Source: Nitrospirales bacterium
GTDB taxonomy: Bacteria; Nitrospirota; Nitrospiria; Nitrospirales; UBA8639
Assembly (NCBI GenBank): GCA_963422365.1
Contig: OY729426.1
Coordinates: forward strand, 640,001 to 704,000
DNA length: 64,000 nucleotides
Direction of reading: 5' to 3'
A program made the position numbers. Below are positions 33,517-42,500 of this stretch, piece after piece. The number at the start of each line of letters is the position of its first letter. Positions within the stretch are counted from its first letter, which is position 1.

Positions 33517-36500
33517 TGATGTTTTTGCAACAAGTGGAACTAGCGAACTTCCGTGGCATTAACAATCTTCGCATCGTCTTTGACGACGTGTGACGCCAAT
33601 TGAGACAGCAAACCGCTTACAGCATCGCATCTGAGACCGCGTTGCGCTGTGTATTAGCGCTATACTATATTGAGTGGCACATTTGTGCCACATATTCAGC
33701 TACGTTGAAGAACATGACCGTAAAATTCAAGAATCCTCCCGTCAACGAACTGATCATCTCGACGTATTTCAATCCGCCGATACATGGATTACGAAACGAA
33801 CATATTGGTCTTTTCTGGCATTCTATTAGGGACAAATTCCCGACCGTTTCCCAACAACTTCCCCTTCCTCCGGACGTTGGGGTGAACATGGATGCCCCGA
33901 TGGGGCAAGAGATTTTTCCGATGCCTAGATACTGGATGATTGCTTCAGATGATAGAAACCTTATCCAAATACAAAAGCATGCTTTTATGTTGAACTGGCG
34001 TCGCCGTGATGCTGAGTACCCGCACTATGAAAAGATAAAGCCGATTTTTGATAAATATTATTCGAAATTCCAAGCTTTTATATCGTCAGAAACCAATACG
34101 GACAATCTCCATATAGATGTGTGTGCATTGACCTACATCAATAAAATAGAAGCATGTGAATATTGGTCAGGTCCTGAAGACATCAAAACAATCATTCCGT
34201 CATTTTCAATTCCGACTATTGGCTTATCTCCGACAGAGCAACGTTATAATTGTAGCTTTAGCTATGTAATTGATAACGACCTTCAATTACGCGTCTCCGT
34301 GCATACGGCACAATCTGACCGAAATTCTGAGATTCCGATGCTTATCCTTGAAATTCAGGCATCTGGACGTATTGAGTCAGCAAACCGTTCAGAGAACAAA
34401 ACTCTTGCCGATGCATGGTTTGATCATGGTCACCAGGCAATTATCGATTGCTTCGTCAAGATGACAAACCCCGAGATACAGAATCAAAATTGGATGCCTA
34501 CGGAGCATGAGACATGAGCACAGGCCTATCAACCGACTACAACCCCCGCATTTCTGCCTACACGCCTATGAACATAGACGAGAGTGAGGCTTTTCTTCGT
34601 GAAAAAATGGCCGCAACCCAACAGGCAACAGCAGCCTATCTGCAACGAATTGCGGAACTCAAAAAAGATGCGGTGGCCGACGGCATTGCCATGAATCCCT
34701 CTTCTGAGCGCGAATTCCGGACATTTTTAGGGACTCGCGGCTTTTTCCGAAAAGGGGCACTCTTTCTTCTGGACAATGGAAACCTTCGTGCTATCTGGAA
34801 GAACGAACAGGGTGATCACATTGGTCTCCAGTTCCTCGGCAATGGAGCCATCCAATACGTCATGTTCACGCACAGGAACCCTCGGGCAAAAAATGTTTCG
34901 AGGGTAGCCGGACGCGACACCCTTGATGGCGTCCGCCGCCAGATTCTGGCTCTTGACCTCGCCGATCTGCTCTCGTCATGAAGGACGATCCGCTTCCAGA
35001 TGCTGACCACGTTGTGCGCTACGTTCGATCCGGTTTGATAGATGGTGAAGAAGTTGCCGGAGGGGCATTTCTTAGAAGAAATGGAGAACGTGCGTGTTCG
35101 ATAAACTGGCTGGACTACTTCCGAGATCAGTCAAAAGAACGGCAGGTGCGTGAAGTTCGTCGGCTCATTCGCCTCGAAATCCGTCCCAATGGGCGTTTAG
35201 CAGAACTTCATGTGGGTCGAACCAAGCAACATGTAGCCGATCATCTTACACCTCTTGACTTTGTTGAAGATCCGCTTGCTGCCGACTTAGGCAACGGGTA
35301 CCGCGAGAACCCCTCTCATGCTCTTATCAAGGGACTTCCAGACCCCGAGCAAAATTCTGAATTTTCAGAAATGATCGGAGATATGATCGCCGAATGCGTA
35401 ATCATACCTCTCCATAAAGCTATTGAAGGGTGATTTTCTCCTATTGTCGTTGCGACTGATTGCCCTCTCAAGCAATCAAAACCTGGCAGACTTGTTTTTA
35501 TTACACCGGATGGTCACCATTGCTAGCATGACCTGACAGTGCTATTGATTCATCTGTGTATCGTGTTTCCACAGGCGAGCCGCCTGTGACAGGTTGGGAA
35601 CGCCGTTCCTATACTGCCTTCCCAGACCCCACACCCCTTGTCCCTACCGCCATCACGAACTCCATGATGACGACTCACCCTGCCATTCACACTGCGTCGG
35701 TCATTGGCGCCGGGGCGTGGGGCACCACGCTCGCCCGCCATTTGGTGAACCAAGGTCTCACGGTCAAGATCTGGGCCTATGAAAACGATGTGGTCGAAGG
35801 GATCAATCTCAAACGGGAAAATGCCTTGTTTTTGTCGGGCATCATCCTTCCCAAGGCGCTCGCGGCCACGCACTTTCTTCAAGACGCGGGCACCGGCACC
35901 GACTTGATCGTGCTGGCCGTCCCTTCGCATGCCATGCGACCGGTGGTCCAGCAATTGAAACCCTCCCTTTCCGATCCTCTTCCGATTGTCGTGGCGTCAA
36001 AAGGCATTGAAGAACATTCGCATCAATTGATGTCCCAGGTCCTCAACGAACTCCTGCCGTCTAACTGGGCTCATGGGATAACCGTCCTCACAGGACCTAG
36101 CTTTGCCGCTGAAGTGTGTCGAGACAAGCCCACGACCGTTTTGTTGGCCGGGGAGGAGGCCTCCCTGACGGTTCATCTGCAACACGTGTTCATGTCTCCT
36201 TCTTTTCGGGTGTACACGGGGAGTGACTTCGTCGGGGCTCAATTGGGAGGGGCACTCAAAAACGTCATGGCCATTGCCGCCGGCGTGGTGGATGGCCTGG
36301 AATTAGGTCTGAATGCACGAGCCGCGCTGATCACCCGAGGATTAGCCGAGGTGATTCGACTGGGAGTCGCGCTCGGGGCCGACGTGCATACGTTCTACGG
36401 CCTTTCAGGTTTAGGGGATTTGGTGCTAACCTGTACGGGTTCCTTCAGTCGCAATCATGCCGTCGGCCTGCAATTGGGCCGGGGCCGACGGTTGGAGGAC

Positions 36501-39500: not shown

Positions 39501-42500
39501 AAAACCGTTCACGTGGGCAACGCCATCAAATATCGGCCGGAATTTCAGGACTGCCAAGCCATTGCCAAAAAAACCGGCATCCCTGTTCAAGAGGTCATCG
39601 AACAGGTGATGCAATCGGTCCGGCTCAAGGGCCAGCCCCTGCGGTCTTAACGCATGCCGAAGACTCCAACACGACAAAGGCCTTTTCTCGCCATTACCAT
39701 GGGTGACGCGGCAGGGATTGGCCCTGAGGTGATTGTCAAAGCGCTGGCTTCTCCCGTTGTGTGGCGCACGTGCCGTCCGATCGTGATCGGGTCGGTTCCG
39801 ACCCTACAACGGGAAACCCGGCGTCGTTCCTCTTCCCTCACTGTTGTTCCCTTGCATGGCGATCACAGGTGGGAAGACGGGCCAGTCATTCCCAGAGGCC
39901 ATATTCCGGTTCTTGATCCTTTGAAAATTCCATTGGGCCGCGTTCGATTAGGCCAAGCCGCCCAGGGCCCCGGAGCGGCTTCGGTTGAGTTCATTAAAAC
40001 GGCTGTGCAGTTGGCCAAGACCGGCCGTGTCTCGGGAATGGTTACGGCTCCTATCAATAAAGAATCCCTTCACCTTGCAGGGCATCCATACCCCGGGCAT
40101 ACGGAACTCCTCGCCGATCTGACGGGCACAAAACGGGTCGGGATGATGGTCATGGGCGGGCCATTAAAAATTCTGTTTGTGACGACGCATCTGGCGCTCA
40201 GGGACGTTCCCCACGCCTTGACGACCCAACTCGTGTTTCAGGCCATTCGGCTCGCTCATCACGCCATGAAAGACTATTTCAAGATCCCTCAACCTCGTAT
40301 CGGCATGGCGGCCCTGAATCCGCATGCAGGCGAGCATGGGTTGTTCGGCAGCGAAGAGCAAGACTGCATTGCGCCGGCTGTTCGTCTTGCTAAACGCGCC
40401 AGCATTCAAGCCACTGCCCCTCTTCCGGCCGATACCTTGTTCGGAGCAGCTGTTCGCGGAGCGTATGACGTGGTGGTGGCCATGTATCACGATCAAGGGC
40501 TGATCCCTCTCAAAACCGTGGCGTTCGGTCGCTGTGTGAACCTCACGGTCGGATTGCCGATCATTCGCACCTCGGTCGATCATGGCACGGCCTATGATAT
40601 CGTCGGAACAGGAAGAGCCGATCCCCAAAGCCTTCTGGAAGCGATCAAGTTGGCGAGTCAACTGACCACCACCAAGGAACAGGGAACATTTCTTAATCTC
40701 AGCGGCTCTTAGCTCTAACCATAATACCTCACAAAGAATACTGAAATGGAGGAAGAACCATGGTTCGTGAATATAAGGTCGAGGTTGTCGTCGAAGGCGT
40801 CATCGGGAGCCTCCTGTTCGGAGCCAGCAAACTCCCAGTTGAAAAGATGGAAGAACAGATGAACGAACTCGGCCAACAGGGATGGGAAGTGACCTTTATT
40901 GTCATTGAAAAGAAACGCCTGCTCCTGTTTTGGGAACGGGAAGCAGCTGTGATCACGTATTCCCGTTCTCGATAAGACTATGGGAGGATGAAGCCTATTC
41001 ATGACTTCCTTCCAACCTTCTTCTGCTCGGCAAACGGCGCCCAGCCGGCTGCTGGCCCTTCAAACCCTCTTGGCCGTCGAACGCCAAAACTGCTTTGCCG
41101 ATGAGGCGTTTACCACGTTCGCCATGCATGCGAAGCTGTCACACGAAGACCAGGCCTTGGCCTTTGAGCTCGTGTATGGGGTACTCCGCCATCGGGCGAC
41201 GCTGGATTGGCGATTGAATGCGGTCTCGAGTCGTCCCGTTCATCGGCTGCCGGCAGTCCTCGCGGCCATCCTCCGTCTCGGCGTCTATCAAATGCGGTAT
41301 TTAGATCGAATCCCGGTTTCCGCTGCCGTGAACGAATCGGTCAAACTCGCCAAAGGAGTCAAAGGCCGGGACTGGCGTGGAGTGGTGAATGGCATTCTTC
41401 GAAATTTGACTCGACAGGCGGCAGTCGAATGGCCGGATATTGCTCACGACCCTGTGAACGGGTTGTCCATCACGTACTCTTGCCCGAACTGGTTGACTCA
41501 ACGCTGGATCAACCGATGGGGACTCGACCTAGCGGAAGCGATGTGCCGGCATACCGTTACCATCCCACCCCTGACGTTACGAACTAACACGCTTCGCTGT
41601 TCTCGTGACCAACTTGAAGCCAGGCTTTGCGAAGAAGGGTATACGGTTTCTCGGACGTCCATCAGCCCACAGGGACTCATCCTGGATAAATGCGGGTCGT
41701 TACAGACCTTGTCCGTGTTAAAGGAGGGTTGGTGTTATGTAGAGGATGAAGCGGCTCAGTTAGTTCCTCTGCTGTTGGATGCCAAGCCTGGGCACCGTGT
41801 GTTGGATGCGTGTGCAGCCCCTGGAGGAAAATGCTCACATATTGCGGCGTTACTGCAGAATCAGGGGGAGATCGTGGCAACCGATCGAGAGCCCCAGCGT
41901 CTGAAACGCTTGGAATCGAATCTGCATACTCTGAGGATCACGTGTGTGAAAACAGTCATGATCTCCCACGAGGCTACCCCTGCATCCTCATCGTTTCGTG
42001 ACACCTGGGTTCAGGAGGGGTTTGATCGGATTCTGGTTGATGCGCCCTGTTCAGGGTTAGGGGTACTCCGTCGCCATCCCGAAGCGAAATGGCAAAAAAC
42101 TTCCTCACAACTCGATTGGCATGGGGAACGCCAATTGGGCATCTTAGGACAGGCGTCTCCTCACTTGAGACGAGGTGGAGTCTTGGTCTATAGTGCTTGC
42201 TCAACGGAGCCTGAGGAAACCACCCAAGTCGTTTCGCGTTTTTGTCAAGACCATCCAGAATTTTGCCATGAATCATCGGCGAGCTGGCTCCCTCCGCATG
42301 CTCACTCCCTCACGAACCCGGACGGAGATTTCCTCACAGTCGGTTCCCGTTACAATATGGACGGGTTTTTTGCTGCACGACTTCGGCGAACGTAAAAGAT
42401 GAGTCCCTCAACCGTCACAATCGCTCCTTCGATTCTCTCCGCTGATTTTGCGCATCTGGCCGACGAGGTCGCCGCCGTGGAAGCTGCGGGAGCCGACCTG

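Follow-up and report, generated by a model that had tools for sequence, protein, structure and literature searches.

LarB, which carboxylates and hydrolyses NaAD, catalyses the first step in building the nickel-pincer nucleotide cofactor, and LarC, a nickel-inserting cyclometallase, catalyses the last. Which enzymes use the cofactor in organisms that have no LarA is a question that has been in print since 2014, and to our knowledge an answer exists to date for no more than two families. Orphan sets of larB, larC and larE are an already known phenomenon: in one study approximately 15% of the genomes analysed carry the three genes but no larA, and the orphan genes of cyanobacteria do make the cofactor (PMC11796402). 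The two published users outside the LarA family are the NphT aldo-keto reductases and an ornithine cyclodeaminase, both found through the neighbourhood of lar genes (PMC13524815). NphT (PDB 9YEB) has a nickel-binding His144 and a cofactor-tethering Lys200 and shows that aldo-keto reductases can use the cofactor covalently or not (PMC13524815), and the ornithine cyclodeaminase uses its adenine-dinucleotide form (Desguin 2025, cited in PMC13524815).

The window, by which the whole stretch of 64,000 nucleotides analysed here is meant, belongs to a Nitrospirales genome (G000) that consists of one contig of 2,495,695 bp and is 98.58% complete. Its host is a nitrite-oxidiser-type bacterium, and in many habitats nitrite is oxidised mainly by Nitrospirales. 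Protein families were scored against curated NCBIfam cut-offs and with Pfam profiles, second copies were sought by tblastn (E ≤ 1e-3), and the lineage was sampled through 151 Nitrospirales genomes, each at least 90% complete, among which the window's own family is f1. The features are collected in Table 1.

Table 1. Genes of the lar locus and other genes discussed in the text; positions refer to the window unless a genome or locus is named.
Feature	Position	Strand	Family match or predicted character
gpsA, NAD(P)H-dependent glycerol-3-phosphate dehydrogenase	35556-36713	+	NF000942, 414 bits (cut-off 257)
larB	36734-37489	+	NF033503, 278.7 bits (cut-off 175); model positions 1-208 of 209
Conserved divergent gene, 197-aa ORF	37589-38182	-	Secreted protein, FlgD-type Ig-like beta-sandwich (predicted)
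larC, fused LarC1-LarC2	38436-39650	+	TIGR00299, 189.3 bits (cut-off 90)
pdxA, 4-hydroxythreonine-4-phosphate dehydrogenase	39654-40712	+	TIGR00557, 373.7 bits (cut-off 290.35)
larE	G000:C1:1118384-1119151 (outside window)	-	TIGR00268, 305.2 bits (cut-off 150)
1243-aa protein, C-terminal aldo-keto-reductase domain	2291399-2295130 of G000		PF00248
Aldo-keto reductase, 284 aa	G000:C1:2322986-2323840		PF00248
Deoxyhypusine-synthase-like protein, 393 aa	L223:785-1966	-	

The earlier note had stated that the genes for all three cofactor-building enzymes are present in this genome and that LarA is absent, and both statements hold. The genes larB, larC and larE are identified and complete, each passing its curated cut-off with full model coverage; the LarC2 part of larC reaches 142 bits with NF052512 (cut-off 50), Pfam Ni_insertion (PF01969) matches the gene with 457 bits over positions 1–374 of 375, and tblastn gave no second copy of larB or larC in the genome. 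For LarA, the Lar_N profile (PF09861) has no match in the one-contig genome even at E ≤ 10. The same three biosynthetic families are found as in Lactiplantibacillus plantarum, but the two systems differ in several respects: L. plantarum has larA, it encodes larC1 and larC2 where G000 has one fused gene, and its lar genes form one operon, whereas those of G000 are divided between two sites amid housekeeping genes, one at 0.68 Mb and one at 1.12 Mb of the genome, with larE approximately 440 kb from larB and larC. The LarE proteins differ as well. LarE of G000 aligns with the solved L. plantarum enzyme (5udq) over residues 4–261 (E 6e-53) and has the PP-loop motif SGGxDS (AFSGGVDST in the alignment), together with CYHC and with AAAC, whose Cys falls one position after the aligned L. 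plantarum Cys176. The [4Fe-4S] subtype of LarE has been described by a CXXC motif and a third Cys one residue off that position (PMC9283937); judged by its motifs, LarE of G000 belongs to this CXXC-C iron-sulfur type, in contrast to the sacrificial single-Cys type of L. plantarum. In the pathway that we propose, LarB would carboxylate and cleave NaAD, LarE of the iron-sulfur (CxxC-C) type would add two sulfurs catalytically, and the fused LarC would insert nickel to yield the nickel-pincer nucleotide cofactor, which would most likely be used by an enzyme outside the recognised user families, encoded elsewhere in the genome.

The same pattern extends over the order, in agreement with the earlier note, by which most of the lineage has LarC and little of it LarA. 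LarC is present in 143 of the 151 Nitrospirales genomes (95%, a higher share among these near-complete genomes than the 77% of 511 genomes given in the note) and LarE in 145, while LarA occurs in 12, all of them in family f2, and in 0 of the 66 other f1 genomes. Within the genus of G000, whose genomes measure 2.1–3.2 Mb, LarE is retained in 35/35 and LarC in 34/35 other genomes, and 28 of the 29 genera sampled carry the lar set. The set resembles the orphan cyanobacterial genes in that the cofactor genes occur without a LarA homologue (PMC11796402), but differs from them in belonging to the core of an entire order and in having been cleanly lost by one genus. The median identity of larB over 43 related loci is 90.5%, and the dN/dS ratios of larB (0.105) and larC (0.173) fall beside those of their neighbours gpsA (0.179), pdxA (0.178), rpe (0.111) and pheS (0.114), so that purifying selection on the lar genes is as strong as on the housekeeping genes around them. 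Because the lar genes are constrained in this way, a user of the cofactor probably exists, as far as conservation alone can tell, and the pathway would appear to be active.

The sole consistent absence of the lar genes in the order is that of genus g11, in which LarC is found in 0 of 6 genomes, LarE in 0 of 6 (order sample) and 0 of 7 (family sample), and LarB above its cut-off in 0 of 7. This genus lost larB, larC and larE cleanly, and it retains gpsA, the small divergent gene and pdxA with their arrangement unchanged; in the lar-less genome G003 the sequence reads gpsA, small gene, unknown ORF, cation-efflux gene, M28 peptidase gene, pdxA, ksgA. All five g11 genomes searched keep gpsA, and the lar-less genus shares 54.5% (gpsA) and 57.9% (pdxA) identity with the proteins of the window, the genome-wide median being 55%. 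A screen for genes lost together with lar, in which a single lar-less genome was the comparison, failed to reveal the user of the cofactor. Genus g11 represents a natural loss of the pathway that can be used for comparative work, and a closed genome of 2.5 Mb with constrained larB, larC and larE, set beside a lar-less sister genus, makes the search space for the user small.

The earlier note had proposed that the cofactor serves another enzyme family and had pointed to the two flanking oxidoreductase genes; the first part stands, in that LarA is absent and another family probably uses the cofactor, but the second lacks support. If the nickel-pincer cofactor rather than NAD(P) were the ligand of GpsA and/or PdxA, their tight adjacency to lar (20 nt between the gpsA stop and the larB start, 3 nt between the larC stop and the pdxA start) would be accounted for, and so would its recurrence in 44/44 Nitrospirales-type loci, where the succession gpsA-larB-(small gene)-larC-pdxA is conserved to the limits of each contig. 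It has also been suggested that for many genes next to lar an annotation as NAD(P)-dependent oxidoreductase may be wrong (PMC13524815), and survival of both genes in g11 would equally be expected of essential enzymes that could take either cofactor. Most of the 44 loci, however, also keep rsmB-rpe-pheS, housekeeping genes without a link to the cofactor, and the gene directly upstream of pdxA varies (in G000 it is larC, four loci have a Na/Ca-exchanger gene there, and g11 has an M28 peptidase gene), so that pdxA abuts other genes where larC has been displaced or lost. Both enzymes are sole copies with canonical family scores: tblastn (E ≤ 1e-3) gave no second gpsA or pdxA in G000, and PF04166 gives one PdxA. 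In GpsA, whose coordinates are those of the maximal ORF and whose family match begins at residue 46, the N- and C-terminal Pfam domains are both found, and the GxGxxG motif (GAGAWGT, aligned as viGAGaWGTtLA with the closest solved relative, 3k96) is kept; this motif binds the ADP moiety of NAD(P), and a mononucleotide cofactor has no such moiety. PdxA aligns with its closest solved relative, 4jqp, at the conserved His motifs NPHAGE, MYHDQG and SVDHGTA, and since G000 encodes PdxJ (322.9 bits) and a PdxB homologue (367 bits, under its cut-off of 434), with PdxS not found in the genome, pdxA is needed for vitamin B6. The lar-less genus, finally, keeps both genes with ordinary divergence. The reservation attached to the earlier proposal, that the two are the only homologues in the genome, with probable housekeeping roles and a linkage that may be plain synteny, agrees with the tblastn search, the family scores and the 44 loci, and a role of either enzyme as user is extremely unlikely; these obvious candidates of the neighbourhood can be dropped. 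Most likely gpsA, pdxA and the small divergent gene adjoin lar only through a gene order frozen across the order, and co-transcription is probable.

Among candidates encoded elsewhere, one of the two aldo-keto-reductase proteins of G000 (PF00248, 114.3 and 71.6 bits) could be an NphT-like nickel-pincer enzyme, given that NphT has the same fold and that both the His and the Lys are missing from 26% of the aldo-keto reductases linked to lar (a share derived from values of 34% and 40%), for which reason a non-covalent user of this family is conceivable (PMC13524815). NphT was found through adjacency to lar, whereas both genes of G000 (at 2.29 and 2.32 Mb) lie approximately 1.2–1.6 Mb from the lar genes, and both types survive in the lar-less genus, the divergent one in 7/7 g11 genomes and the 284-aa type in 3/7 (assigned from a similar score and a similar range of the profile). 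The 284-aa reductase has its best alignments with classical NADPH enzymes (3b3d, YvgN), shares their GxSN and Q motifs, and reads GISNV and GFSLL at the sites of the NphT residues, with Val in place of the nickel-binding His and no His or Lys, these sites being our own inference from residue offsets rather than from an alignment with NphT; PDB 9YEB is not among the best 60 PDB matches listed for it, and its type is missing from several LarC-positive genomes (e.g., G007, G027 and G039), which have the divergent type only. The reductase domain of the 1243-aa protein, on the other hand, is far from the solved NAD(P)H-dependent members (best PDB match E 1.2e-4), which speaks for it, but all in all an aldo-keto-reductase user is unlikely. 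The deoxyhypusine-synthase-like protein might employ the nickel-pincer cofactor where an NAD+ is otherwise transiently reduced, which would parallel the chemistry of ornithine cyclodeaminase: the protein is missing from the lar-less genus (0/7 and 0/6), present in 66/66 other f1 and 67/67 f2 genomes, and, compared with the archaeal deoxyhypusine synthase 8put, has two acidic positions of TTGGxxDHD replaced (STGALMAHG) and the SWGK lysine kept. Its gene is not linked to lar, however, a protein so rare in family f3 would in any case be expected to be lacking in g11, and it is missing from LarC-positive lineages (0/3 in f4; 0/7 over g14, g15, g16 and g18), so it cannot be the general user, and we regard its use of the cofactor as very unlikely. 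Ornithine cyclodeaminase itself (OCD_Mu_crystall, PF02423) has no match in G000 at E ≤ 0.01. That the Pfam models overlook a highly divergent relative of LarA or DUF362 is about as doubtful as an aldo-keto-reductase user: DUF362 occurs in 59/151 Nitrospirales and in 0/6 g11 genomes, so that elsewhere in the order such proteins may be used, but against this stand the Lar_N search above, the absence of DUF362 from G000 at E ≤ 0.001 (it is present in a cyanobacterial control genome) and its occurrence as one fragment among the 35 other genomes of the genus. There may, lastly, be no protein user: the lar genes may be relics in decay, or nickel may be bound by the free cofactor or by its sulfur-containing precursor. 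That the search turned up no user fits this, as does the loss of the pathway in g11, where a nitrite-oxidoreductase-like gene is still kept in at least 3 of 6 genomes; we know of no free role of the cofactor, though, and the proposal is hard to reconcile with lar dN/dS values equal to those of essential neighbours and with the near-complete retention of LarE and LarC in the small genomes of the genus, which leaves it improbable.

A genus that has no known user and yet keeps the pathway makes a further nickel enzyme likely. It is rather probable, in our judgement, that functional larB and larC, together with larE, make the cofactor for a user of an unrecognised family encoded elsewhere, with gpsA, pdxA and the small divergent gene as ordinary neighbours. 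In our view there is an even chance that the user in these Nitrospirales belongs to a family whose dependence on nickel has so far escaped notice, and which is neither LarA nor DUF362, nor that of the ornithine cyclodeaminases or of the NphT-type aldo-keto reductases.

The small gene between larB and larC, which goes unmentioned in the earlier note, lies outside the cofactor system. It matches no Pfam or NCBIfam family, its likely start is the ATG at 38164, and a homologue is found in all 44 Nitrospirales-type loci. A signal peptide and a WDGxD motif are seen in an alignment; the AF2 model is all beta (pLDDT 80), with generic Ig-fold matches only in the PDB, and the closest Atlas cluster is annotated as 'FlgD Ig-like domain-containing protein' (score 0.96). 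The gene is kept in the lar-less G003 with 36% identity (E 6e-29).

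The orphan nickel-pincer pathway of the host genome (G000) is real, complete and constrained, and it is a core trait of the Nitrospirales. As the earlier note had reported, larB, larC and larE occur without LarA: all three exceed their cut-offs (see table), and the Lar_N profile gives zero matches, even at E≤10, in the whole genome, a single contig of 2,495,695 bp with a completeness of 98.58% that encodes approximately 2,400 proteins. LarE can be aligned along its length with the solved L. plantarum enzyme, and it carries the SGGxDS loop, a CYHC pair and, in this alignment, a third cysteine one residue past the position of L. 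plantarum Cys176; PMC9283937 describes the CXXC-C motif as the mark of the iron-sulfur, multiple-turnover type of LarE. The constraint on the lar genes, expressed as dN/dS, matches that on their housekeeping neighbours, and larB shows the highest conservation in the block (median identity 90.5%). Judged from sequence, the pathway looks functional. Rfam gives no match at E≤1 within window positions 33000-43000, promoter-like and terminator-like sites are no more frequent than in shuffled sequence, and no LarE relatives were found in a metagenome scan. Two overlapping ORFs lie tail-to-tail with larE; they were dropped from consideration and look like pieces of a frameshifted DNA methylase/methyltransferase (TSPPY motif).

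Features of the lar block and of the candidates considered (window, positions in the stretch; G000:C1, host contig; L, DNA stretches with numbering of their own; dN/dS, medians over 43-45 related loci)
Feature	Coordinates	Strand	Remarks	dN/dS
gpsA	window 35556-36713	+	above curated NCBIfam cut-off, full-length coverage	0.179
larB	window 36734-37489	+	above curated NCBIfam cut-off, full-length coverage	0.105
197-aa ORF	window 37589-38182	-	unannotated, between larB and larC	
larC (both LarC parts)	window 38436-39650	+	above curated NCBIfam cut-offs, full-length coverage	0.173
pdxA	window 39654-40712	+	above curated NCBIfam cut-off, full-length coverage	0.178
rsmB	window 41001-42395	+	next after pdxA	
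rpe			after rsmB	0.111
pheS			after rpe	0.114
larE	G000:C1:1118384-1119151	-	305.2 bits, cut-off 150	
Two overlapping ORFs	G000:C1:1117194-1118410 (L066:9194-10410, +)		beside larE	
Deoxyhypusine-synthase-like protein	G000:C1:1162785-1163966 (L223:785-1966)	-		
Aldo-keto reductase 1	L005:1444-2298	+	284 aa, beside putative PEP-mutase fusion gene; best alignment with classical NADPH enzymes	
469-aa ORF	L005:11-1420	+	directly upstream of aldo-keto reductase 1	
Aldo-keto reductase 2	G000:C1:2291399-2295130 (L006:52-2958, +, covers part)		divergent C-terminal domain of 1243-aa protein	
Three unknown proteins	L209:1496-2431; L218:9637-10680; L217:11833-12531			
Protoglobin-PsiE fusion	window 15956-16882	+	Pfam 92.7 and 79.5 bits	
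ArgZ-like and DDAH-like genes	L044:1922-3966	+	Nitrospiraceae relative	

The pathway is more general in the order than the earlier note stated, and the rarity of LarA is borne out. In a sample of 151 Nitrospirales genomes with a completeness of 90% or more, 143 have LarC, 145 have LarE and 12 have LarA. The 12 with LarA all belong to family f2 (genera g13, g21 and g28), and the 66 other genomes sampled from the window's family (f1) all lack it. The sole consistent exception to the presence of the pathway is genus g11, of family f3, which has neither LarC (0/6) nor LarE (0/6, and 0/7 in the family-level sample), and in which LarB never exceeds its cut-off (0/7; PurE-like matches only, 22-27 bits). 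The other f3 genomes, from the lar-bearing genera g14, g15, g16, g18 and g20, have LarB above cut-off in 13 of 14 cases, and in the fourteenth it is split into two pieces. Two genomes outside g11 (G145 and G149) have LarE and no LarC, which is probably due to an assembly gap. The disappearance of the lar genes is not linked to that of a nitrite-oxidoreductase-like gene, which was found in three of six g11 genomes.

The notion that the cofactor serves the dehydrogenases encoded by the flanking gpsA and pdxA, proposed in the earlier note, is contradicted by the evidence. A search for related loci gave 45, of which 44 are labelled Nitrospirales, Nitrospira, Nitrospiraceae or Nitrospirota (one of them Nitrospinota), while the remaining one, from a Desulfobacterales genome, has larC alone in common. 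The order gpsA-larB-(opposite-strand small gene)-larC-pdxA is kept in all 44, as far as the contigs extend, which taken by itself could speak for a functional tie; since rsmB-rpe-pheS is also retained in most of them, the adjacency is one element of an extended run of unrelated housekeeping genes. In four loci a gene of the Na/Ca-exchanger family separates larC and pdxA, and ksgA, ftsK and lolA come next. Both flanking genes are present in one copy each in the host genome, GpsA retains GAGAWGT (alignment with 3k96) and PdxA its conserved histidine motifs (alignment with 4jqp). PdxJ and a PdxB homologue were found and PdxS was not, and therefore pdxA is required for vitamin B6 synthesis; the presence of the PdxB homologue also led to the idea of a nickel-pincer enzyme in place of PdxB being dropped.

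The decisive test of the flanking-gene lead is the lar-less genus g11, where gpsA and pdxA are retained in all five genomes searched. In two of these genomes (G003 and G024) they lie on the same contig, with approximately 3.4 kb between them, and the order in G003 is gpsA, small gene, a 341-aa unknown ORF, a cation-efflux gene, an M28 peptidase gene, pdxA and ksgA; the 341-aa ORF in the place of larC was ruled out as a LarC remnant. The identity between G003 and the window is 54.5% for gpsA and 57.9% for pdxA, the median of 1253 shared proteins being 55%, so that GpsA and PdxA serve a lineage unable to make the cofactor, and their divergence is not raised. The reading that the earlier note itself had set against its proposal, that these are the only copies, probably with housekeeping roles, and that the linkage may be synteny, agrees with the single copies and the block-wide conservation of gene order. 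Two further observations on this region are that rsmB has no tblastn counterpart in G003 (99% complete), and that a Nitrospiraceae relative carries, upstream of its gpsA-lar block, genes that code for an ArgZ-like arginine dihydrolase and a DDAH-like protein.

The small divergent gene wedged between larB and larC in 44/44 related loci is retained in the lar-less genus as well (G003, 36% identity, E 6e-29), and it is very unlikely that its product holds the cofactor. In the product a signal peptide precedes a domain of approximately 135 residues, in which the motif WDGxD is conserved (alignment A1); its model is all beta (mean pLDDT 80), it gives only generic Ig-fold matches in the PDB, and its closest Atlas cluster is a Nitrospirota FlgD Ig-like protein. 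It is predicted to belong to a secreted FlgD-type Ig-like family.

Published users of the cofactor other than LarA belong to two further families. According to PMC13524815, the aldo-keto reductase NphT holds the cofactor via His144 and Lys200, and an ornithine cyclodeaminase that uses a dinucleotide form is cited there. The host genome has no match to PF02423 and two to PF00248; these are the aldo-keto-reductase domains that the earlier note had flagged, and neither lies near any lar gene. The divergent type is found in 7/7 g11 genomes and the 284-aa type in 3/7 (assigned by like score and profile range), the latter being missing from several LarC-positive genomes. The divergent domain is joined to a large N-terminal part with a 45% identical counterpart in G003, and in f3 it seems to be free-standing, in frames of approximately 384 aa. 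The 469-aa ORF upstream of the other reductase resembles a fusion of a PEP-mutase-like and a nucleotidyltransferase-like domain, which suggests phosphonate synthesis. DUF362 (PF04015) occurs in 59/151 Nitrospirales genomes, in most sister genera of g11 and in 0/6 g11 genomes; it is absent from the host genome, and the genus to which the host belongs has almost lost it, the sole match in 35 further genomes there being a fragment.

The case described here is one instance of an already known open problem. PdxA, GpsA and Nitrospira go unmentioned in the main text of PMC13524815; PF04166, PdxA, PF01210, NAD_Gly3P_dh and PF07479 do not appear in seven of its 12 smaller supplements, nor PF01916, PF04015, DUF362, PF00248 and PF02423 in any of the 12, and eight larger ones may hold a Pfam co-occurrence table. 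Full-text literature gave one incidental paper on nickel-pincer together with Nitrospira and, from 2024, nothing on LarC and cyanobacteria. What is new is that the window's genus appears to be without any recognised user family, that one genus has shed all three lar genes, and that several user candidates can be set aside.

The user was not found in the host genome by neighbourhood, known-family or co-loss searches. The co-loss screen compared 2563 greedy ORFs with G003 (54 contigs, 2,168,226 bp) by tblastn; 1253 gave good matches, and among the ORFs of 180 aa or more, 457 lacked a match. These 457, among which larB, larC and larE were recovered, are dominated by family-level differences, the screen resting on one lar-less genome from a family other than the window's. 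The 52 of them that were annotated, picked as short runs between conserved flanks, include no convincing user. Of the 52, a deoxyhypusine-synthase-like protein alone has a chemistry that would hint at such a role; two acidic positions of its TTGGxxDHD stretch are substituted. It occurs in 66/66 other f1 and 67/67 f2 genomes (133/133 together) and in 0/6 g11 genomes, a pattern that would suit a user; it is lacking in f4, which is LarC-positive, and in the greater part of f3, and thus cannot be the general user, and its standing as a candidate is low. Three unknown proteins were rejected, being present in 0/5 LarC-positive f3 genomes, an absence that would not rule a protein out if users differ among lineages, and so was a myo-inositol-phosphate synthase (PF07994), found in 3/21 f3 genomes, one of them g11. 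Another ORF without a G003 counterpart encodes a protoglobin domain fused to a PsiE-family membrane domain.
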